DNA from: Candidatus Fermentibacterota bacterium
Lineage (GTDB): Bacteria > Fermentibacterota > Fermentibacteria > Fermentibacterales > JCC-6
Assembly (NCBI GenBank): GCA_963845085.1
Contig: CAWJQI010000005.1
Coordinates: forward strand, 1-64,000
Reading direction: 5' to 3'
Length of the DNA: 64,000 bases
In this document: positions 45,309 through 58,092 of the stretch, one piece after another
How the letters are laid out: every line of letters starts with the position of its first letter
How positions within the stretch are numbered: the first letter of the stretch is position 1
Notes under the pieces: generated by a model
Databases searched by the model: none
Seen by the model: only the letters and a program-made list of their open reading frames with translations
What the model was told of the DNA's origin: nothing
Made by a program: the position numbers and the translations under genes

Positions 45309-46553
45309 TCATTCCGCAGACTCGACTACCATTCCCGAGCTTGAGCCCTCGACCAGTCTGCACTCCATGATGGAGCCAGGCACGCAAGGCCTGGTGAAGG
45401 TGGCCTGCAGATCGGCTTCAGGAGCGTCGTAGCAGGAATGGCCAGTCAGCCGGGTGTCGGCCATGACCGGAAAGACCGAACCGGAAAGCCTGTCGATCCA
45501 TGAATGGTAGATCCCCTCCCCCAGCGATGAGAGGGCGAAGAGCCTCTGCCGCGCGATGTGTTCGGGCACTGAATCTTCCGCGCGTGCGGCTCTTGCGTAT
45601 TCCTCCGTCCCCTCTTCGGGCCACCAGGAAAAGGCCGCTATATGCCTCAGAGATGGCCATCTGCCCAGAAAATCCTCGAGACGGGAAAAATCCTCATCCG
45701 TCTCCCCGGGGTAACCGGTGATGACGGTGAACCTCACGGCCACAGGCCTTGAGAGACCCTCGATGGTGTCCATGATGCGGCTGAGCGTCTCCGGGCCGTA
45801 CCCGCGCCCCATCCTGCGAAGCACGGAAGGGGATGAATGCTGTATCGGCAGGTCGAGGTAGGGCGCCAGGTTCATCCGTGATTCGAAAAGCCCGGGAAGG
45901 TCGCGGGGAAAATGCGCGGGGTGAATGTAATAGAGCCTGAACCAGATGTCGGGGTGGCTGCGGGTGGCCTTTTCCAGCAGTTCCGCAAGCCCCGGATGTG
46001 CGCCGGTATCCTGGGCAACGATCCCGATCTCCCTTGCGCCCTGGCGAGCTACGTCGTCGATCGAATCAAGCACGGCCTTTGCCTCGTAGGGACGGAACGG
46101 CCCCCGGATCATCGGGATTGTGCAATAACTGCAGTTGTTTCCGCACCCCTCGGCGATCTTGACGAACCTGCACACTCCTCCGCCCGCCTGCCGGTGAGTT
46201 GCGGAAGCCGCCCCCAGCCACTCCGAAAACCTCGTCTGCTCACCCGGCTTCAGCACCAGATCGATTTCCTCGAGCCCGCCGCTGCCGTCGTCGGGGTAGC
46301 GTGCAGGCAGGCAGCCTGCGAGCACAACCTTCCTGTTTTCCCCGGCGGCCTTCCAGTCGAGCAGCTCGTTGAGCTTCTCAAGGCTTTCGTCCACGGCGGG
46401 CGAAATGAATGCACAGGTGTTCAGGATCAATAGATCAGCCCTCCCGGGATTCTTCACGCACCGCAGCCCGGCGTCGAGACAGACGCCGGCAAGAACCTCG
46501 GAATCGACCTGGTTCTTCGGACAGCCCAGAGTGATGACGTGGAAGCTCTTCAA
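45309..46553 (-). CDS. rimO: Ribosomal protein S12 methylthiotransferase
   Basis: LGCPKNQVDSE, NTCAFI, KIAEGCGNNCSYCTIP, AQDT, LDLPIQH, GYPGET, DAPE. Confidence 0.9.
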   Translation of the reverse strand: MKSFHVITLGCPKNQVDSEVLAGVCLDAGLRCVKNPGRADLLILNTCAFISPAVDESLEKLNELLDWKAAGENRKVVLAGCLPARYPDDGSGGLEEIDLVLKPGEQTRFSEWLGAASATHRQAGGGVCRFVKIAEGCGNNCSYCTIPMIRGPFRPYEAKAVLDSIDDVARQGAREIGIVAQDTGAHPGLAELLEKATRSHPDIWFRLYYIHPAHFPRDLPGLFESRMNLAPYLDLPIQHSSPSVLRRMGRGYGPETLSRIMDTIEGLSRPVAVRFTVITGYPGETDEDFSRLEDFLGRWPSLRHIAAFSWWPEEGTEEYARAARAEDSVPEHIARQRLFALSSLGEGIYHSWIDRLSGSVFPVMADTRLTGHSCYDAPEADLQATFTRPCVPGSIMECRLVEGSSSGMVVESAE

Positions 46554-47126
46554 TCAACGATCCCCGGAGACGGTTGTGTACCCGGCCGGCACCGTCATGC
46601 GGAAATATCCGGACGGGGGTTCACCGGCAGTTTCAAGGTCGCTCAGGCTCCAGACCGTGAGATTCCCATTGACATCGGATGTTGAAAAATAAAAAGGAAG
46701 TGAATCAGAGCGGTTGTACCTGACCTCCATCGATGAAATCCCGCCGCCGAGATCCCCTGTTACCGTCACGGCGACCTCGTCGCCGTTTGTGTGCTCTTCC
46801 GTGACCATCCCCTCATCGTCCGCACGCTCAAGAAGGTGGAGGAAACCCTCGGCGCCGGAATCTCCGTAGACGACGACCTCGCTGTAAAGGGGGTCGATAG
46901 TGTAGACCGAGCCTCCGTCGCAGCCTGTGACCCGCCCGGGCGGGGTGGAGTAGTCAAGCCTGAACAGATTGGGATGGGCGATACCCATGACACCGCGCGA
47001 GACCTCGGTCTCCCTGGTCAGGGCCCAGGTGTCGGTCTGAACGAAGGTTCCAGAGAGAAAACCCGTTTCCGAGAGCTTCAGTGTGAGGGGGTCAAGAAGA
47101 CTTGAAACAAGTGCAAGCCAGAACAT
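46554..47126 (-). CDS. lolA: Outer-membrane lipoprotein carrier LolA
   Basis: GTFVQ, PNLFRLDY, CDGGSVY; located downstream of ftsK. Confidence 0.75.
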   Translation of the reverse strand: MFWLALVSSLLDPLTLKLSETGFLSGTFVQTDTWALTRETEVSRGVMGIAHPNLFRLDYSTPPGRVTGCDGGSVYTIDPLYSEVVVYGDSGAEGFLHLLERADDEGMVTEEHTNGDEVAVTVTGDLGGGISSMEVRYNRSDSLPFYFSTSDVNGNLTVWSLSDLETAGEPPSGYFRMTVPAGYTTVSGDR

Positions 47127-47150: not shown

Positions 47151-47759
47151 TCACTGTTCAAGAACAGCGTCGGTGCCTATGACCAGCATCACGCCGCCGC
47201 CTTCCGGAGCAACTGCATCTATAAGACCGCCGCCTCCCTGATGTTCCACGACGGTCGGGCGCTCAAGCCAGGTGCCGACGGAATCGGCGAGTACGGAGGC
47301 AGCATCTTCAAATCCCTGCCGGTGAAGGACCACGGTGACCTCCGGAGCCTGGGGATCGTATATCGTGTTCACCGTGCAACCGCTTGATTCGAGTCGGTCG
47401 GAAACCCATTCCATGACAGCTTCGCCCGCGGTCTGTCCAACAACGGTGACGGCCATCCCGTCGAGCGCACTCGGGACTCGGGCGCCGTCGGGCGCTGTCG
47501 CGCCGTTGCCCAGCTCGACGTCGATGCGCCTGACGGCAAGCCTTGCGTCATCGGCAAGCGGTGAGGAGGGGAACCTGTAGACCACGCCGTTGAACTCCTC
47601 GCGTGAGGCGGAAAGGCTGCCGCGGAAGTAGAGCTGGCCGGCTCTGGTGAACTGGCCCGCAGCGTTGTCTCCAAACGCCAGACCGTTCTCGTCGAGGCCT
47701 TCATTTCCACCGCCGCATGAAAGCACGGCCAGAAGAAGGCCGAGCAAAACACATCTCAT
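47151..47759 (-). CDS. Lipoprotein with TPR hairpin and possible LytR_C-like C-terminus
   Basis: Lipobox VLSC; FPSSPLADDA; ends VMLVIGTD. Confidence 0.6.
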   Translation of the reverse strand: MRCVLLGLLLAVLSCGGGNEGLDENGLAFGDNAAGQFTRAGQLYFRGSLSASREEFNGVVYRFPSSPLADDARLAVRRIDVELGNGATAPDGARVPSALDGMAVTVVGQTAGEAVMEWVSDRLESSGCTVNTIYDPQAPEVTVVLHRQGFEDAASVLADSVGTWLERPTVVEHQGGGGLIDAVAPEGGGVMLVIGTDAVLEQ

Positions 47760-49990
47760 GGAATCTCCATTTCACCATCGGGAAGGCTCAATGCCGAATC
47801 GGCCTTTTGCAGAACCTCCCTTGCCTTGCTTCCGCAGTACGGACCAACGACACCGATCTGTTCAAGCATCTCCAGAAGCCTTGCAGCCCTCGTGTAGCCG
47901 ACCTTCAGCCTTCGCTGCAGGAGCGATGCGGAACCCCTCTGATAAATGACAACGACTTTCCGGGCTTCTTCGAGCAGCGGGTCGTCGAGGGTAAGATCCC
48001 CCGTAACGTCGCCGCCATCCTGCTCGTCGTCACTCGGCTCGTAATCGTACGGCATGTGGGGCTGGGCCTTCCAGAAGGCCACGAGTTCCTTGATCTCACG
48101 TGATGAGACGAAGGAGCCGTGGACCCGGACGGGATCGGGAGCGCCGGCAGGCATGAACAGCATGTCTCCCTGGCCAAGGAGTTTTTCCGCCCCGTTCATG
48201 TCGAGAATGGTTCTCGAATCCGTCTTTGATTTCACGTTGAAGGCGATTCTGGAAGGGAAGTTCGCCTTGATCATCCCGGTGATCACGTCAACGGAGGGAC
48301 GCTGTGTGGCCACGACGAGGTGGATGCCCACCGCTCTCGCCTTCTGGGCGAGCCTTGCAATGGGTTGCTCAATGTCGTTGCCAAGAACCATGCGGAGGTC
48401 GGCAAGCTCATCGATGACCGCCACGATCGATGGCATGGTGTCGGGCGTTTCCGGCGATTCCTCCCCGGGTTTTCCGATCCGGTCGGCAAGCGCTGCACTT
48501 CGGATGTTGCCGTTGTATTCGTCGATGGATCTCACTCCCTGCCTTGTGAGGAGCGCGTACCTGTCCTCCATCTCCCTGACGAGCCTGTCAAGCAAAGCCT
48601 TGGCCCGCTGCGGATTCAGCACCACGGGCGCCCAGAGATGCGGAACGCCCTCGTAGATGGACAACTCAAGCATTTTCGGGTCGACCAGCACCAGCCTGAC
48701 CTGGCTTGGTGTTCTCGTCATCAGAACCGACGTGAGGATGGAGTGGATGCAGATGCTCTTTCCGCTTCCAGTGGCGCCGGCGATGAGAAGGTGCGGCATG
48801 TTGGCGATGTCGACGACCAGCGGCTTTCCCTCGGCATTCTTGCCAAGGGCCACGGGGATCCTCTCGTTCTCGACCGACACGAGCACTTCCCTGAGGTAGA
48901 CCATCTCCGGGTTCTTGTTCGGAACCTCGATGCCCACAGTGCCCTTCCCGGGGATCGGCGCAAGAATCCTGATGCGTTTTGCAGCCAGGGCAAGCGCAAG
49001 GTCATCCGCCATGTTCACGATCCGGTTCACCTTGACACCGAGCCCCGGGGAGAGTTCGTACCTTGTCAGCACGGGGCCTGCGCAGACCGTATTCTCAAGG
49101 CGGCATTCTATTCCGAAATCACCGAGTTTCTCAACGAGGATGTTGCCCCTCTCCTGAATCTCGCGGCTGGACTGCCTCACACGCTCTCCCGGAGCCGGCA
49201 TCTTCAGGCACTCGATGTCGGGAAGGGTGTAGACCGCCTCATCCTTCTCCGAAGCATCCGTCGGGGCGGCTGCCCGGCCCGGCGGGACACGCCTTGCAGG
49301 AACCGGTTCCGCATGTTCAACGACGGTCTCGACGGGGGCAGGCGTATCGTGGTAAAGCACCTTCACCTCGGGGGATATGACAACGGGAGGGGTTTCCTGG
49401 CGGATCCAGGGGCTGCCGCCTGTTTCCGGCAGCGGTTCGGCGGTTCTTACGGCAACCGCCCTCGGGGGCTTCTCCGCGGGCTTGAGCCTGCGAAACAGGG
49501 CTTCGATGTCCGACCCTATCTCCCAGCGTGCGAGAATGGCAATCGAAGCCGTGAAAAGCATGAAAAGAGCGAGCCAGGAGAGCACACCGCCGATCAGTCC
49601 CTCCAGGATCACTACGAGCCTGAAGACAAGGGTTCCGCCGGGGAAAAGCGCACCCGAGGGTGAGAACCTCGCCAGTATGCAGGTGACCGAGGACGCGAGG
49701 AAGAAGGCGGTGAGAAACACTCCGAACGTTGTGCGCAGCCATCCCGGAACGAAGCGGAAACGCATGGCGAGCGAACCGAGAAGGAACAGGACCACGGGCG
49801 CGAAAAATGCGAGAAGCCCCACCCGATGCCGGACGGCCTCACCCACGGTCACGAGAAGGCCGGCCCTTTCGGGCGGGAATGAGATCGCAACCAGCACTGC
49901 CAGAGAGGCGAAGACCGAAAGGAAAAAGACAATCACGCGGACCGGATGAGTTTGTCTCGGGGCGTTCCTTTTCACCGGCCTGCCCGTCAT
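47756..49990 (-). CDS. ftsK: DNA translocase FtsK
   Basis: N-terminal TMs; MPHLLIAGATGSGKS, DPKMLEL, IDELADL, ATQRPSVDVITG; gamma domain LQRRLKVGYTRAARL. ATG at 49990. Confidence 0.97.
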   Translation of the reverse strand: MTGRPVKRNAPRQTHPVRVIVFFLSVFASLAVLVAISFPPERAGLLVTVGEAVRHRVGLLAFFAPVVLFLLGSLAMRFRFVPGWLRTTFGVFLTAFFLASSVTCILARFSPSGALFPGGTLVFRLVVILEGLIGGVLSWLALFMLFTASIAILARWEIGSDIEALFRRLKPAEKPPRAVAVRTAEPLPETGGSPWIRQETPPVVISPEVKVLYHDTPAPVETVVEHAEPVPARRVPPGRAAAPTDASEKDEAVYTLPDIECLKMPAPGERVRQSSREIQERGNILVEKLGDFGIECRLENTVCAGPVLTRYELSPGLGVKVNRIVNMADDLALALAAKRIRILAPIPGKGTVGIEVPNKNPEMVYLREVLVSVENERIPVALGKNAEGKPLVVDIANMPHLLIAGATGSGKSICIHSILTSVLMTRTPSQVRLVLVDPKMLELSIYEGVPHLWAPVVLNPQRAKALLDRLVREMEDRYALLTRQGVRSIDEYNGNIRSAALADRIGKPGEESPETPDTMPSIVAVIDELADLRMVLGNDIEQPIARLAQKARAVGIHLVVATQRPSVDVITGMIKANFPSRIAFNVKSKTDSRTILDMNGAEKLLGQGDMLFMPAGAPDPVRVHGSFVSSREIKELVAFWKAQPHMPYDYEPSDDEQDGGDVTGDLTLDDPLLEEARKVVVIYQRGSASLLQRRLKVGYTRAARLLEMLEQIGVVGPYCGSKAREVLQKADSALSLPDGEMEIP

Positions 49991-50517
49991 ATCCTGCGCT
50001 CCGACCTGCCGTCCGCGCCGGCGGGGTTGCGGGAGTCGGGTTTCAGAACGCCGTCGACACTGAAGCAGTACCTGATGGACTGCCCGGAATGAAGCGATAT
50101 CTCGGCGACCCAGCTTCCGTCTGGAAGCTTCTGCATCGGACTGGCCGAGGCGTCCCACCCGTTCCAGTCCCCCACAACCGAAACCTCACGGGCGTCGGAA
50201 CAGCCGAGGCAGAGGAACTCGACCCGGGTTCGCTCCGACAACCCGAGATGGATTGCGTCCTTCAGGTCATCGTAGGGGCGGAACACGGGTTTGACTCTCG
50301 GCGGTATCTCCATGACGCCTCCCCGACCGGGATTCCTGGCCCTTCGCATCTTGCCTTTTTTGGTGAAGAAGCAGCCGAAACCCCTCAGAAACACGCTCTC
50401 CCCGGCGCTCAGCCTTTCGGTGATTATCGAGAGCAGGACCACGGTCAGGGACTGCACCTCCCGGACCGTAAGCCCGGTTCTCCTCGCAGCCTCCCTGGCA
50501 AGCTCCTCGCGTGTCAT
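49987..50517 (-). CDS. HU/IHF DNA-binding protein fused to a CBM48/early-set glycogen-binding-like domain
   Basis: aa 1-89: GESVFLRGFGCF, RARNPGRG, EIPPRVKPVFRP. aa ~96-176: AREVSVVGDWNGW, PMQK..DGSW, YCFSVDG...D. Confidence 0.85.
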   Translation of the reverse strand: MTREELAREAARRTGLTVREVQSLTVVLLSIITERLSAGESVFLRGFGCFFTKKGKMRRARNPGRGGVMEIPPRVKPVFRPYDDLKDAIHLGLSERTRVEFLCLGCSDAREVSVVGDWNGWDASASPMQKLPDGSWVAEISLHSGQSIRYCFSVDGVLKPDSRNPAGADGRSERRI

Positions 50518-50629
50518 GGCGCCCCCCCGGTACGGATTGTTATCTTCTCATGGCATGACGGTTTGAATATACTAATTCTTCGCGGGACAGCTGGGAACCG
50601 ATGGCTCAGTGAACTGAAAGGTTTGACCA

Positions 50630-51151
50630 ATGCTCTTCTTCATCGCAGGGCCGCCCTTTTCGGGAAAAACAACCGTGGGACGGCTTCTTGCCGGCATTAT
50701 GGCATGCCCGTTCACCGACCTCGACCGCTTCATTGAAGAGCGCGCCGGCATGAGCATTGCGGATATTTTCAATAGCATCGGCGAGAAGGGGTTCAGACTG
50801 CTGGAATCAGCCTCGCTCGCTGAGCTTGCCACAGGGACGCACGAGCACATGGTCGTGGCCCTGGGCGGCGGAACACTGCTGATCCCTGAAAACCTTGCCG
50901 TGGTGCGGGCGCGGGGCGCCCTGTTCACCCTGTCAGCCGAACCTGCGGTGCTTGCGGGAAGATTCTCACAGGGCCGCCCTCTCGCGCGTGACCGGGAGGG
51001 TCTTGAACGGCTTCTCAGGGAAAGGGCTGAGCACTACGACAGCCTGCCGGGAAGGATAGACACCCGGGGCAAAACCCCCGGGCAGGTCGCCGGGCTCATC
51101 GCGGAGCAGATCGCATCCCTTCCGAGGCTTCAACAAGCCCCGCCCGCCTGA
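50630..51151 (+). CDS. aroK: Shikimate kinase
   Basis: GPPFSGKTTVG, DLDRFIE, GEKGFRLLE, ALGGG, RPL. Confidence 0.93.
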   Translation: MLFFIAGPPFSGKTTVGRLLAGIMACPFTDLDRFIEERAGMSIADIFNSIGEKGFRLLESASLAELATGTHEHMVVALGGGTLLIPENLAVVRARGALFTLSAEPAVLAGRFSQGRPLARDREGLERLLRERAEHYDSLPGRIDTRGKTPGQVAGLIAEQIASLPRLQQAPPA

Positions 51152-52106
51152 TCGTTTCCCTCGCGTGGGCGAGCCCCACGAAAAACCTGTTCGTGTACAG
51201 CGTGTAATCATCCCTGAGCCTTGGAGGGGTCATGTTGACAGTGATCACGTTAGCCCCCGCCATGAAGCATCGGTACTGCCCGTCGGGCAGAAGCTTCTGA
51301 AACGTGCTGGTTGCAGGGATCAGCGTGCGCCCGAGGTACAGCCGCATTGCGGCAATAAGTCTCAGCCCCAGTTCCGGGTCTCCGTGGGGATGGTCGGCAA
51401 GGGGCGTGGAAGCCGCGGGCATGAACACCGAAACACTCGACATGTCCACATCGAGTTCCTTCAAAAGCAAAAGATCGCCAACCAGGCTGTCGACGGACTG
51501 GCCGGGCAGGCCCAGCAGCGTTCCGGACCCCACGCTGTAGCCGTGATCGTGCAGTGTTTTTAGCATCGCGATCCTGTCGCTCAAAGTGAAGCCGGGCTTC
51601 ATCCGTGAGAACAGCTCGGGATCGGATGTTTCGTGTTTCAGAATGAACTTGCCCGCGCCCGCGGCACGCCATGCATCGAGGTCACGAACGTCATGAAAGC
51701 CCACGCAGAGCAGGACCTCCATTCCCATTGCGGCGATCTGACGGATCACATCGGTAAGCCATCCCGATTCGTAGACCTCGCTCTCCGCGGCCTGAAGAAA
51801 GAATGTCCTGATGCCGTTCTGCAGGGCCGTCCGAGCGGTTTCGACGATCTCTCCCGCTTCAAGCCCGTATCCCGCGGCTCCCTGGTTGCCCAGCCGCATG
51901 CCGCAATACAGGCAGCTGCACCTGCACCTGTTGGCGAACTCAATCACAGCCCTGATGTACGCCTTGTTGCCGAAGTGCCGCTCCCTGACCTGAACCGCCT
52001 TCCTGCAGATCAACTCGAAGTCCTTTTCGTCGGACTCCAGAAGGGCCCTCAGATCACCGGGAGAAAACCCCTTCTCAAGTCTCTCGTCAATCCAGCCGGC
52101 GTCCAC
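51096..52106 (-). CDS. HydE-like radical SAM enzyme (BioB/HydE/PylB group)
   Basis: RAVIEFANRCRCSCLYCGMR, LKHETSD, GSGTLLGLPGQ, TPL, IPAT, GANVITVNMTP...YTLY. Confidence 0.8.
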   Translation of the reverse strand: MDAGWIDERLEKGFSPGDLRALLESDEKDFELICRKAVQVRERHFGNKAYIRAVIEFANRCRCSCLYCGMRLGNQGAAGYGLEAGEIVETARTALQNGIRTFFLQAAESEVYESGWLTDVIRQIAAMGMEVLLCVGFHDVRDLDAWRAAGAGKFILKHETSDPELFSRMKPGFTLSDRIAMLKTLHDHGYSVGSGTLLGLPGQSVDSLVGDLLLLKELDVDMSSVSVFMPAASTPLADHPHGDPELGLRLIAAMRLYLGRTLIPATSTFQKLLPDGQYRCFMAGANVITVNMTPPRLRDDYTLYTNRFFVGLAHARETIRRAGLVEASEGMRSAPR

Positions 52107-54125: not shown

Positions 54126-55055
54126 ATGAAAAGCATGATAAGCGGCCTGTTTTCAATGCTGGCTACTGCAACCGCCCTGTCCGGAGGCAGGTACGCCTCG
54201 CTCGACAGCCTGGCCGCGGCAATCCTTGATCTTGACAGCCTTCCAACGGGTGCTGCTCTGCTTGGGCTGGCCGCCAGGCACGAATGGGTATGGCCGCTCG
54301 GAGAAGTGCTTTTAAGCGGTGGACAACCCGATTCCCCGCCCGATTCACTCGCATGGGGCATCGCTGTTTCAGACCGCGCCGCATGCGTTGTAACGGCCCC
54401 GCCGCCGGCATTCACCCTTAACCCTCCCCTGCCGGTCGCGGCGCATCCCGGTGACATCCTGTGCATCAGCCCCGTCGGCAACCCCCCGCCCCTGAGGGGG
54501 GCAGCCCTTTCACCCTCACTTTCCGTCCTACCGGTGACAGACGGCACCATCGTGCTCGACGAGGAGGGGACATGGTGGATAGAACTCATGACCGACTCCG
54601 AGTTCGGCCCCACTGTACTGATGCTGTCACCGGTCGATGTTGGATCGTCCGGGGCGTGGCCTGGAAACGGATGGAACCGGGATGGGATCCTGCGGGGAAT
54701 CAACGGCCTGAGGAGAAAGCTCGGAGCAGAACCCCTTGCGGAAAGCCCGTTCCTGAACGCCCTTGCTTACATCCGGGCGCGCCAGGCGAGAAGCTGGGGC
54801 GGCGTGCTGCACAGCTTTCCCGGCAGTGCGGGCACCAGCGAAATGATGCCCCCGGCGTACGGAGGCTGGGCGGAGAACATCGCCAGCGGATCGGATGTGT
54901 CCGAGGCGGTGCAGATGATCCTCGTCAGCCCCTTCCACCTGGCCTCCATCGTTGACGAAAGGTATGGTTTCATGGGGTTTGGAACGGTGTCGGGGCAGGA
55001 TGGAACTCTGCTCGTTCTCATCCTTTCCGAGGCTTCCGGAGACGGGGAAAGATGA
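54126..55055 (+). CDS. Exported CAP/SCP-domain protein
   Basis: INGLRRKLGAEPL, LHS, AENIA, SPFHLASI, MGFG. Confidence 0.75.
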   Translation: MKSMISGLFSMLATATALSGGRYASLDSLAAAILDLDSLPTGAALLGLAARHEWVWPLGEVLLSGGQPDSPPDSLAWGIAVSDRAACVVTAPPPAFTLNPPLPVAAHPGDILCISPVGNPPPLRGAALSPSLSVLPVTDGTIVLDEEGTWWIELMTDSEFGPTVLMLSPVDVGSSGAWPGNGWNRDGILRGINGLRRKLGAEPLAESPFLNALAYIRARQARSWGGVLHSFPGSAGTSEMMPPAYGGWAENIASGSDVSEAVQMILVSPFHLASIVDERYGFMGFGTVSGQDGTLLVLILSEASGDGER

Positions 55056-56596
55056 AGAGACGCGCTCCATGGATCATAGCGGCATCGGTCACGATCGGGC
55101 TTATGGCCATAGCGGGGGCCGTTCTCCACGCGTCGTCACCCAGGATTACACTGATGCTCGCCGTGACGGCCTTTGTGAGTTCCGGTCTTCGCATCACATA
55201 CAGGGGGAGGGAGTATGAAACACTCCACACGATGCTTCTCTTCCTTTGCTTTTTCTACGGCGGCATCGTATCGGGCCTCCTTGCCGTACTGATCCTGGCT
55301 TCCGGGTCGGCTGCCGGCATCGGCAGCGGGGGGAGGATCGGTGTCTTTCACCTCGGGACCGCCCTGCAGGCCCTGCTTATCGTCCCATTCGCACTTTTGT
55401 CACCCCGCGGCGCTCTCCCCTACCCGGCTCCGGTCTACCTGGCGCTTGTTCCCCTCCTCTACCTGGCCAGACGGATCACAGTCGTTGAACCCCCTGCCGG
55501 AAGGTGGCGAAGCCTGGCGTTTCTCGGCTTCCTCACCAACGTCCCCGCCGTGCTCCTGGCGGTGCATGTAACCGAAACATTCGGCCCGGTGGCCACGGTG
55601 CTCTTCTGTCTGCTGTGCGTGCTCTACCTCTTCCTTGTACGCAGGGAAACGCTCGAGATCGGCAGACGGACTGCACGGCTGGTGCACCTCACCGAGCACA
55701 ACGCCATATCCCGTTCACTTCTGTCGGCGGTGTCCCTCACCGAATTCGTCGCAGGGATCGAGGTAAGGACCGGGCCGGGGCTGCACTTCTACGAAAAGGC
55801 GCCAGACGGCTGGCTCGAGTGGACCTCGTCGGGGTGCGTCAAGACGGCGGGGATCCCATCATGTCCGGTCGACGGCCGTGAATACCGCACGCCGGGCATT
55901 CCGGGCGTGGTGGTCATGGCGACAGATGACGCGGCACGCTCGGCCGCCGCCCTCGATGCTGATGAAGCGGCGGATTTCTACGAACAGCTGGCAAGGAACT
56001 GGCAGGTGGTGTCGGCAAGGATCCACCAGGAGGAGGCCCTGTTCAGCGTGGCGCTCCTTCTTGCCCGCATAGCCGACCTGAAGGACAGGTACACGAAGAT
56101 GCACTCGCTCAGGGTGGCCGAGCTCTCAACCGCCATTGGCCGGGAGATCGGTCTTTCCGAGGGCGAGCTTTCCATGCTCAGAACCGGGGCCCTGCTTCAT
56201 GACATAGGCAAAGTCAGCCTGCCCTCTGAGATCCTCGGCAAGAAGGGCATACTGACCTACCGGGAAAGAAACATCATAAAGAGCCATCCGGGCGAGGGGG
56301 CGGCACTGGTCTCGGGGCTTAGCCGGTTCAGAAAGGCTGCGGAGACAGTTCTTCACCATCATGAAAGGCTCGATGGAAGCGGCTATCCAAACGGCCTGAG
56401 GGGAAGCGCGATCCCGCTGCACAGCCGCATCGTCGCGGTTGCAGATACCTTCGATGCCATCACGGCGGACAGACCCTACCATCCCGAAGGTCAGTCGGAA
56501 AACGCCCTCAGGGAAATTCAGGCCGGCAGGGGCACGCTGTACGACGCAAGGGTCGTCGATGCACTGAGCAGGCTGGTGGAAGGGGGAACATGGTGA
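55052..56596 (+). CDS. Membrane-bound HD-GYP phosphodiesterase
   Basis: Multiple TMs; KDRYTKMHSLRV, LHDIGK, HHERLDGSGYP, DRPY. Confidence 0.9.
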   Translation: MKRRAPWIIAASVTIGLMAIAGAVLHASSPRITLMLAVTAFVSSGLRITYRGREYETLHTMLLFLCFFYGGIVSGLLAVLILASGSAAGIGSGGRIGVFHLGTALQALLIVPFALLSPRGALPYPAPVYLALVPLLYLARRITVVEPPAGRWRSLAFLGFLTNVPAVLLAVHVTETFGPVATVLFCLLCVLYLFLVRRETLEIGRRTARLVHLTEHNAISRSLLSAVSLTEFVAGIEVRTGPGLHFYEKAPDGWLEWTSSGCVKTAGIPSCPVDGREYRTPGIPGVVVMATDDAARSAAALDADEAADFYEQLARNWQVVSARIHQEEALFSVALLLARIADLKDRYTKMHSLRVAELSTAIGREIGLSEGELSMLRTGALLHDIGKVSLPSEILGKKGILTYRERNIIKSHPGEGAALVSGLSRFRKAAETVLHHHERLDGSGYPNGLRGSAIPLHSRIVAVADTFDAITADRPYHPEGQSENALREIQAGRGTLYDARVVDALSRLVEGGTW

Positions 56597-58092
56597 CCGC
56601 GAACAGGCGAACCGTGTCACCCCTTATAGCGTCCGCCATCATCGCCGCAGCCCTGGCCGTGCCCTCAGGGCCTTCAGAACCGCTGTCACTCATGCAGGTT
56701 CCAATACTGCTTGCACTGGCTTCAGGCATGCTGGTCTCGGTGGTCTTCACGGGGTTCTCGACATCCGGCGCCCCCCTGAACGCATTCCCCTTCGCCATTG
56801 CAATGGGAGTCACACTGCTCGGTTCCCTGGAAGCAGCGTTCGTTTTCTCGCTCGTATCAGGCGTGGGGTCCCTCTACCTCGAATCAAGGCAGGGGCGCAG
56901 GAGGATGGAGGGCAGAAAGGGCGCACTCGAGCTTTTCGCATCGGTTTTTCTGCTCTGCAGGGTGCTCTCGCTCATCCAGTCCCAGCTGCATCGCTTGTCG
57001 GGCGTGTCAGCGCTAACCCTCGACGTCGTCTCACTGCTCATCCTCACCACCCTCGCCACTGTTTCAATGGGCTTTCTTCCTGTACCGCAGGAGTTGCGAA
57101 CAAGAAGGAGGTCGCCTGTTCTCTTCAACCTCATCCCCCTGCCCATGGCCCTGCCCCTGCTCGAAGTAAGGGATGACCCGGAAACCCTTCTCGTGCCGCT
57201 GGCGGGTGCGGTTTTCCTGGTTGCTGTGGTGCAGCTCGGTGTATTCCTGCTGACAACCCGAAGACGTGCTCTCGAGAGAAGCATGGAGATGGAGAGGGCG
57301 CTTGCCGATCTTACGAGCAAGCTGTCTTCGGCGGGCACAGGAGCCGCCGCCCTCAAGATAATGCTCGAGGAACTTCTCAGGGGAAGCGGCGCCTCCAGGG
57401 TGACCGTCACTCGGGGAAACCTGTCGATGTCGCTTCCCGTGAAACCCGCGGAATCAACATGCGCTGTCAGCAGGGGGCTCGCCGGCCTTACCGCCGTTCT
57501 CGAATACCCGGTGATGCCCCTGGTGAGCCCCGAGCGGGTTGATTCCTTCCTCACACGGACGGCCGTGATGCTGGAATGGATCACAGTGACCGAGACGATC
57601 ACCAGGGAAACATGGGAAAGCATCGAGACCCTTGTGCTTTCCCTGGAGAAAACCGACGAGAAGGTGGCCGGCTTCAGCAAGAGGGTTGCGGAAACTGTCG
57701 CCGGTCTTGCGGAGGGCATGGGGTTCGACAACTGGTCGGTCAACTCCCTCAGGGTGGCGTCACTGCTTCATGCCGGATCGGCCGCCATAATGGGCAGCCT
57801 TGATGCCGAGGAACCGCCGATGATGGGATCGATGAGCCTCCCGCCGGTGACGATCGATGCCCTGCGGTATCACGCTGAATGCTGGGACGGCTCGGGGCCG
57901 ATGGGGCTCTACGGTGAGCGGATACCGGCCGGGGCCAGGGCGCTGGCGGTGGGAATCAGCTGGGAGAAGGCTTATGCCGCCGGCGGGCTCAGGGAAGCCC
58001 AGCGGGCGATGCGAATGGGCAGCGGGCTGATATTCGACCCGACTATCACAGGCCTGCTGTTGAAAATGAAAACGGCCGGGCCTCAGGGATAG
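56590..58092 (+). CDS. Membrane protein with degenerate HD-GYP domain
   Basis: Multiple TMs; LLHAGS in place of LHDIGK; YHAECWDGSGP; GERIPAGAR; GLIFDP. Confidence 0.75.
   Translation: MVTANRRTVSPLIASAIIAAALAVPSGPSEPLSLMQVPILLALASGMLVSVVFTGFSTSGAPLNAFPFAIAMGVTLLGSLEAAFVFSLVSGVGSLYLESRQGRRRMEGRKGALELFASVFLLCRVLSLIQSQLHRLSGVSALTLDVVSLLILTTLATVSMGFLPVPQELRTRRRSPVLFNLIPLPMALPLLEVRDDPETLLVPLAGAVFLVAVVQLGVFLLTTRRRALERSMEMERALADLTSKLSSAGTGAAALKIMLEELLRGSGASRVTVTRGNLSMSLPVKPAESTCAVSRGLAGLTAVLEYPVMPLVSPERVDSFLTRTAVMLEWITVTETITRETWESIETLVLSLEKTDEKVAGFSKRVAETVAGLAEGMGFDNWSVNSLRVASLLHAGSAAIMGSLDAEEPPMMGSMSLPPVTIDALRYHAECWDGSGPMGLYGERIPAGARALAVGISWEKAYAAGGLREAQRAMRMGSGLIFDPTITGLLLKMKTAGPQG

Follow-up and report, generated by a model that had tools for sequence, protein, structure and literature searches.

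What is a domain of the glycogen-binding type doing on a nucleoid protein? The question is raised by a gene on the minus strand (50517->49987; 49987..50517) of a 64,000-nucleotide stretch from a Candidatus Fermentibacterota genome (contig CAWJQI010000005.1, positions 1 to 64,000; hereafter the window). Based on its open reading frame (ORF) call and its homologues, the gene encodes from an ATG start a fusion of 176 amino acids (aa) between an HU/IHF domain and a domain resembling carbohydrate-binding module (CBM) family 48. A preliminary description of the locus, made from its sequence, had suggested a protein that tethers glycogen granules to the nucleoid. Because most of the residues with which a related kinase domain grips glycogen are absent, the CBM-like domain is here considered likely to be a contact surface and not a glycogen tether. 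The explanation favoured, judged somewhat probable, is a DNA-bending HU-type nucleoid protein whose CBM has likely been repurposed as a contact module and which acts with FtsK at division.

Architecture and distribution of the fusion

The first 89 residues (50251..50517, minus strand) match Bac_DNA_binding (PF00216) in Pfam at 69.8 bits against a cut-off of 22.4, over model positions 1–89 of 90, and keep the GFG motif, the basic arms and the arm-tip Pro63. Residues 96–176 (49990..50232, minus) form a beta-sandwich of the CBM48/AMP-activated protein kinase (AMPK) beta type by profiles and structure alignment, with Pfam CBM_48 matching residues 108–154 at 24.1 bits (cut-off, 22.4) and AMPK1_CBM matching residues 108–169 at 26.3 bits, just below its cut-off of 26.8 (27.6 when the domain was scanned alone). 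Both profiles were matched by 45 of 47 family members at E ≤ 0.1, and the HU-HIG profile PF18291 reached 17.6 bits, below its cut-off of 26.2. The protein is a member of the HU/IHF superfamily, and both the descent and the fold of its C-terminal domain are those of CBM48. Pfam and fold matches agree in this with the preliminary description, which had joined a full HU/IHF domain to a CBM48/AMPK-beta-like one, and the motif on which it had relied (V.VVGDWNGW..M..DGSW..Y.F.VDG) is present.

In the AlphaFold2 model (mean predicted local distance difference test [pLDDT], 94.6; predicted template modelling score, 0.69), the HU half begins at residue 1 and is predicted to consist of two helices, a sheet with an extended arm, and a C-terminal helix, matching L. 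lactis HU (5lvt; Foldseek E, 3.1e-7; template modelling [TM] score by target, 0.86). The CBM-like domain modelled alone (pLDDT, 94.9) matches the N-domain of a Pyrococcus amylase (4aef) and yeast SNF1 beta (2qlv; VIA-align Z, 11.7; root-mean-square deviation [rmsd], 1.5–1.8; 79 residues), and Foldseek also matches the AMPK-beta glycogen-binding domain (1Z0N; rmsd, 2.0 Å; TM by target, 0.80). Between the two domains, the junction HLGLSERT (residues 90–97; 50227..50250, minus), placed by the structure model, a gap-free alignment and a public contig, has the sequence first reported for it but is not predicted to be the flexible linker then envisaged: helix 83–93 continues into strand 96–103 at pLDDT 94–95, with no low-confidence linker. 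Across 99 fusion proteins (103 less P0079, P0081, P0082, and P0109; the set behind all counts out of 99 below), R58, R59, R61, and P63 are invariant (99/99), and the arm region has nine basic residues in this protein (family mean, 9.3). From these conserved residues the HU half looks DNA-competent, and is predicted to dimerise and to bend DNA. A plain 90-aa HU is also encoded in the genome.

An assembly artefact, or two genes read as one, was ruled out. Junction residues 77–105 are gap-free in 78/78 aligned homologues (78 of 81; P0079, a partial sequence, P0081, and P0082 were omitted), public contig X2 (50191–50348) matches across the junction without a single difference or gap (pieces of X1 and X3 also span it, with <31 letters on one side, while X5 contributes no piece), and no split into HU and CBM genes was seen among 70 genomes of the phylum. 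On both points raised beforehand, an indel at the junction (50225–50265) and separate genes in relatives, these results favour a single gene.

The 81 homologues were found among 522 candidates from a single-sequence search; the full-length ones are 47–84% identical, and the few with organism names belong to Ca. Fermentibacterota. A full-length match is present in 60 of the 70 phylum genomes (an open frame in 59, an early TAG in the other), the remainder being three with a broken or contig-split copy and seven without a match (61–95% complete). Among 46 high-quality genomes, 44 have a full copy, one has a split copy, and in one the gene was not found. It occurs in all 14 genera, as one copy per genome, with a near-constant length (176–179 aa) over three families. 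Scanning 185,579 species genomes for a motif yielded 68 loci, of which 60 belong to this family and eight are plain Bacteroidota HUs (90–97 aa), and the ESM Atlas holds one cluster with this architecture (100 members; commonest taxon, Fermentibacterota; automatic name). No independent HU–CBM fusion was found outside the phylum: of 151 proteins checked (listed matches plus four homologues), only P0079 and P0080, both from the family, had the two domains. As the searches took in the best 150 of 36,960 matches and a motif-based scan, absence outside the phylum is not proven. Four odd forms have the look of sequence errors or of damage confined to the locus: G023, with a TAG at codon 5 (genome 67% complete); G043/P0082, with a frameshift inside the arm (71% complete); and two without the CBM part, P0081, an HU with WD40-like text on a contig of 628 bases, and P0109, on one of 1063 bases. 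Several relatives start with TTG, GTG or CTG (L049–L053, L055, L004–L010; CTG in L055). An antisense ORF (49729–50736, plus strand; 335 aa) covers the whole fusion gene, the plus strand being stop-free here, and is taken as a GC-rich shadow frame.

The sugar cradle and a second surface

AMPK-beta1 contacts sugar through W100, K126, W133, L146, T148, and N150 (PMC2642990, PMC4032982), and its glycogen binding is abolished by W100G and K126Q and partly disrupted by W133L (PMC6274970). Alignment to the AMPK-beta2 profile places W100 at W121, K126 at position 151, and W133 at position 158 of the fusion. N150 presumably falls at position 171, in a register read from the C-terminal strand. This protein keeps W121 (50155..50157, minus; W in 96/99) as its only cradle residue; it has C151 and L158 in the degenerate part of the cradle (50044..50067, minus), R171, and a shorter L146/T148 loop, and so lacks an AMPK-type cradle. 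The motif that had been offered as a marker of alpha-glucan binding is not supported as one; it is mostly structural core, and the cradle residues other than W100 are absent here.

The same pattern extends over the family. Compared with 415 control CBM domains (>25 bits, cut from listed profile matches, a set biased to repeat proteins), W100 is kept at a similar frequency (96/99 against 410/415), whereas K126 is kept in 10/99 (K or R in 25/99) against 366/414, W133 in 8/99 against 338/409, and W100, K/R126, and W133 together in 6/99 against 332/415. With N171 scored as a fourth position, all four are kept in 6/99, W, K/R, and N in 18/99, and W100 alone in 59/99, including this protein; W121 is replaced by R in 3/99. 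Two members from family f2, L051 and L053, lack W100 (R at 121, GVCDGR), where cradle decay has reached its end point, yet retain LPDGSW. The six members that retain a near-intact cradle suggest that the family may have bound glycogen ancestrally; in a tree without an outgroup, the four rows that keep W133 branch at a fork that is not resolved, so that the tree shows neither the direction nor the number of cradle losses.

An in-phylum control was provided by a lipoprotein CBM paralogue, which has R at K126 in 11/11 and, in 8/11, a W that lies in the W133 loop but is shifted one residue onward. The paralogue is a predicted protein of ~125 aa in many genomes of the phylum (L098–L105, L107–L109; e.g. 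L105:4653-5033, plus strand), though it was not found in G000 (88% complete). It lies directly upstream of a MalK-like-looking ATP-binding cassette ATPase in L105 and L107. Its distance from the plain HU gene is often ~26–27 kilobases, and it is possibly a maltodextrin-capture lipoprotein.

On another face of the domain, a near-invariant, family-specific hairpin, M128-Q-K-L-P-D-G-S-W136 to E139 (50101..50136, minus), is a candidate contact surface by its counts in the 99 proteins: L131, P132, D133, and S135 are each found in 99/99, Q129 in 92/99, and E139 in 96/99. R174 (49996..49998, minus), which is basic, exposed, and part of the last strand, is near-invariant (98/99); K/R130 is near-invariant too. 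In the 415 controls, which barely cover R174, the hairpin columns vary widely except for the core positions M128, G134, and W136. Mean entropy was 0.67 bits on the hairpin side and 2.77 on the cradle side (nine hand-chosen columns each). The ratio of nonsynonymous to synonymous substitution (dN/dS) in the CBM-like domain was 0.17, 0.07, 0.13, and 0.29 in four genera, indicating purifying selection, and 0.07, 0.06, 0.08, and 0.17 in the HU half of the same genera (7, 9, 10, and 6 pairs per genus; proportion of synonymous differences [pS] up to 0.6). The hairpin aligns with AMPK-beta 106–113, and fusion position 102 is presumably the counterpart of AMPK-beta R83. In AMPK-beta, R83, S108, N111, and V113 belong to the CBM–kinase interface, or ADaM (allosteric drug and metabolite) site (PMC8217686, PMC6274970). 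As the hairpin is conserved and the cradle side variable, selection would appear, judging by aligned sequences, to act on the equivalent of the AMPK protein-contact face and not on the sugar site.

That the domain is a vestigial passenger, kept only to stabilise the HU fold or to carry the coupling to ftsK, is very improbable. Its dN/dS exceeds that of the HU half in all four genera, the cradle is lost, and even W121 has given way to R in a few members; yet the length is fixed near 176–179 aa across three families, exposed positions are invariant where the controls vary, and no separation of HU from CBM was seen among the 70 genomes. Improbable, if less so, is a beta-sandwich that reshapes DNA path or specificity (at an IHF-like site, e.g. 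near dif) with neither protein partner nor sugar, in the manner of HU-HIG accessory domains. The rigid predicted junction and the near-invariant R174, K/R130, and Y82 are compatible with such an extension, fusions of HU to immunoglobulin (Ig) and winged helix-turn-helix (wHTH) domains offer a precedent (PMC5499826), and the NCBIfam equivalogs, all far below their cut-offs, score better for IHF alpha/beta (46.8/111, 45.5/115) than for HU (31.6/157, 27.2/162). The domain, however, has a net charge of -2 here and about 0 on average in the family (range, -9 to +7), and the invariant patch is mostly neutral or acidic; no DNA site for the protein came to light, though no search was aimed at one.

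Coupling to ftsK and possible roles

The fusion gene is followed on the same strand by ftsK (47756..49990, minus; PF01580, PF17854, PF09397), whose ATG (49990-49988) overlaps the fusion TGA (49989-49987), the ATGA overlap first reported for the locus. The arrangement is also kept in relatives, as the preliminary description had asked: ftsK lies downstream in 30/30 loci and in 19/20 further loci, the exception being a contig end, with all four downstream genes present in 17 of those 20 further loci from three families. In 56/56 scored loci (59 from the motif scan, 56 scorable), an in-frame ftsK start stands at -4 (18), -1 (19), 0 (1), +1 (16), or +2 (2) nucleotides from the fusion stop. GTG 50158, an alternative start that would extend ftsK into the CBM, was rejected, as relatives begin ftsK at -4 to +2 nucleotides from that stop. 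Upstream of the fusion gene are a Shine-Dalgarno-like G-rich run (50522..50528, minus), with a comparable run in 31/32 scored relatives, and, by inspection, an extended -10-like motif, TG-n-GAAGAT (50542..50550, minus), as a putative promoter element. TGn.RAGAT occurs in 14/32 upstream regions and 93/5000 random windows, an enrichment inflated because the motif was picked by eye from the same loci, and scanning with the promoter consensus gave no site on the minus strand at the fusion gene.

Near-universal and single-copy across the phylum, and fixed before ftsK, the fusion likely does something core. In the favoured explanation, it would form a second, phylum-specific HU/IHF-type dimer that, by its conserved residues, binds and bends DNA. 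Two beta-sandwiches would be fixed to it rigidly, where helix 3 ends. The Q129-LPDGS135/E139 face, with L/F102 and V/F137, may lie against the HU body or serve as a docking site for a partner, perhaps FtsK, and R174 might contact DNA that is wrapped along the flank. Through the ATGA overlap, translational coupling would tie the supply of the fusion to FtsK, and the protein may then act in late chromosome segregation, the least certain step because the order of the genes could be a legacy of housekeeping synteny. The likely source of the domain itself is a module for maltodextrin/glycogen binding, with decay of the cradle in most lineages.

Several points weigh against this explanation. The ftsK-lolA-rimO order is old housekeeping synteny, so that adjacency to ftsK need not imply a shared function. 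The partner is hypothetical, and the putative interface is assigned by sequence alignment; F/Y43 and R45, once considered as family-specific packing residues, were dropped, as Bacteroidota HUs share both. W100 and the GxFNxW motif are retained, and glgA is present in 67/70 and glgB in 62/70 phylum genomes. Further, W133L disrupts AMPK glycogen binding only partly (PMC6274970), and the CBM48s of branching enzymes bind glucans at other sites (PMC6243121).

The points concerning glycogen count for the doubtful alternative of a glycogen tether or sensor, in which the arms bind DNA while the two CBMs bind glycogen, either through avidity or by way of a non-canonical site, with granule partition or carbon-tuned DNA binding as the outcome. 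To the CBM48/AMPK fold, the widespread W100, and the avidity of a dimer can be added the 31% of proteins that have a W at position 153, adjacent to where W133 was lost, and never with an aromatic residue at 158, and the six that keep W100, R/K126, W133, and N150 together, for which tethering is more plausible. Hyd24-12 is reported to have a complete glycogen pathway (PMC5030696), and glycogen condensates displace nucleoids and division sites in E. coli (PMC11042326). A search of this genome for glgABC and glgP, proposed with the tether, found glgA (470.9 bits), a glgC-like gene (408.6, below the cut-off of 424.9), glgB (802.1), and a phosphorylase. The tether is nevertheless weakened by the scarcity of K126 and W133, with ~20% of proteins having Q at K126, the substitution that abolishes AMPK-beta1 binding, and by the cradle side being the most variable surface. 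In this genome no glg genes adjoin the fusion, glgA is universal and so allows no co-occurrence test, and no binding has been demonstrated for the CBM48s of debranching enzymes in which the canonical site is incomplete (PMC6243121). Of the granule tether as first proposed, the glycogen genes stand, but W100 is all that is kept of the cradle here. A more elaborate version is rather unlikely: in it, an HU dimer would clamp glycogen onto the nucleoid and, made together with FtsK, apportion carbon reserves at division. A few lineages would have it intact, and in the others, this genome among them, it would be halfway to becoming a protein-contact module. If true, it would be the first dedicated physical link of a bacterial storage polymer to the chromosome.

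Related proteins and neighbouring genes

Classical HU/IHF proteins (5LVT; E. coli IHF, 1IHF) share the fold, GFG motif, basic arms, and arm-tip proline (27–37% identity in structure matches), but the fusion adds an 83-aa globular C-terminal domain, has R-D-P (86/99) in place of R-N-P at the arm tip together with the invariant Y82, and coexists with a plain HU. HU-HIG proteins likewise join HU to a C-terminal Ig-like domain, with contacts that may differ from the ancestral ones (Burroughs et al. 2017, PMC5499826); they are, however, expanded, fast-evolving, and without operons, whereas the fusion is single-copy, slow, in a fixed operon, and without the extra N-terminal hairpin. Bacterial HU-CCDC81 (HU-TM-LysM/SPOR, where TM is transmembrane; PMC5499826) likewise carries a polysaccharide-binding-type module and has been proposed to tether the nucleoid at division, but the fusion lacks a transmembrane segment and a disordered linker, and has a cytoplasmic CBM48-like module and full-length basic arms. 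Basic residues in the arm average 9.3 in the fusion, 8.1 in classical HU, and 2.8 in HU-CCDC81 (PMC5499826), counted over segments that are not identical. The fusion is neither HU-HIG nor HU-CCDC81.

On the CBM side, the AMPK/SNF1 beta CBM (PF16561; 1Z0N, 2QLV) has the same fold (rmsd, 1.8–2.0 Å), W100, and a protein-contact face of its own, whereas this protein lacks K126, W133, N150, and the L146/T148 loop and is joined to HU instead of a kinase scaffold. The PTST/FLO6 adaptors, which also combine CBM48 with a second, non-enzymatic targeting domain, are a model for the tether reading, but they bind glucan and carry enzymes through coiled coils (PMC6243121), unlike the fusion with its DNA-binding domain and degenerate cradle. 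The nearest look-alikes of the CBM-like domain in the ESM Atlas (score, 0.95–0.96) are stand-alone 'isoamylase early set domain' proteins, which are unfused, 86–99 aa long, and automatically named.

Classical HU rarely carries extra globular domains. The HU fusion partners named in the main text of PMC5499826, as far as available, are wHTH, Ig, glycine-rich, LysM, and SPOR, CBM48 not being among them, and the available part of PMC5683647 mentions only low-complexity or Bacteroidetes types of C-terminal extension, with no occurrence of 'glycogen'. No description was found of an HU–CBM48 fusion, of the Fermentibacterota nucleoid, or, among the papers listed, of CBM48 in connection with the nucleoid, in literature that mostly excludes subscription papers, and those listed on Fermentibacter and glycogen do not deal with HU, judging by their titles and the openings of their abstracts; within those bounds, the earlier remark that no protein of this architecture has been characterised holds. 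The small size, predicted solubility, and easy expression of the fusion, together with naturally occurring variants that have or lack the sugar cradle, make both glycogen–nucleoid coupling and the conversion of a carbohydrate module to a contact module directly testable. It is also a candidate marker for the phylum.

The fusion heads the run of genes assigned to it beforehand as ftsK-lolA-rimO, but the order contains one more member: ftsK is followed by a 202-aa predicted lipoprotein (47151..47759, minus) that overlaps the ftsK stop and has weak LytR_C and BamD matches, then lolA (46554..47126, minus; PF03548, 38.2 bits) and a rimO-like methylthiotransferase gene (45309..46553, minus; best family TIGR01125, 247.9 bits, below the cut-off of 356.95). 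The 202-aa lipoprotein is conserved between ftsK and lolA, its BamD-like resemblance lying in the N-terminal part, and is a candidate division protein. On the other side, aroK (50630-51151, plus) stands head-to-head with the fusion and overlaps by 56 nucleotides the 3' end of a HydE-like radical S-adenosylmethionine gene (51096-52106, minus); in family f2, a local inversion puts aroK on the strand of the fusion. Farther along the window, two adjacent membrane proteins (55052-56596 and 56590-58092, minus) have C-terminal parts that are HD-GYP-like by eye, the second apparently degenerate.

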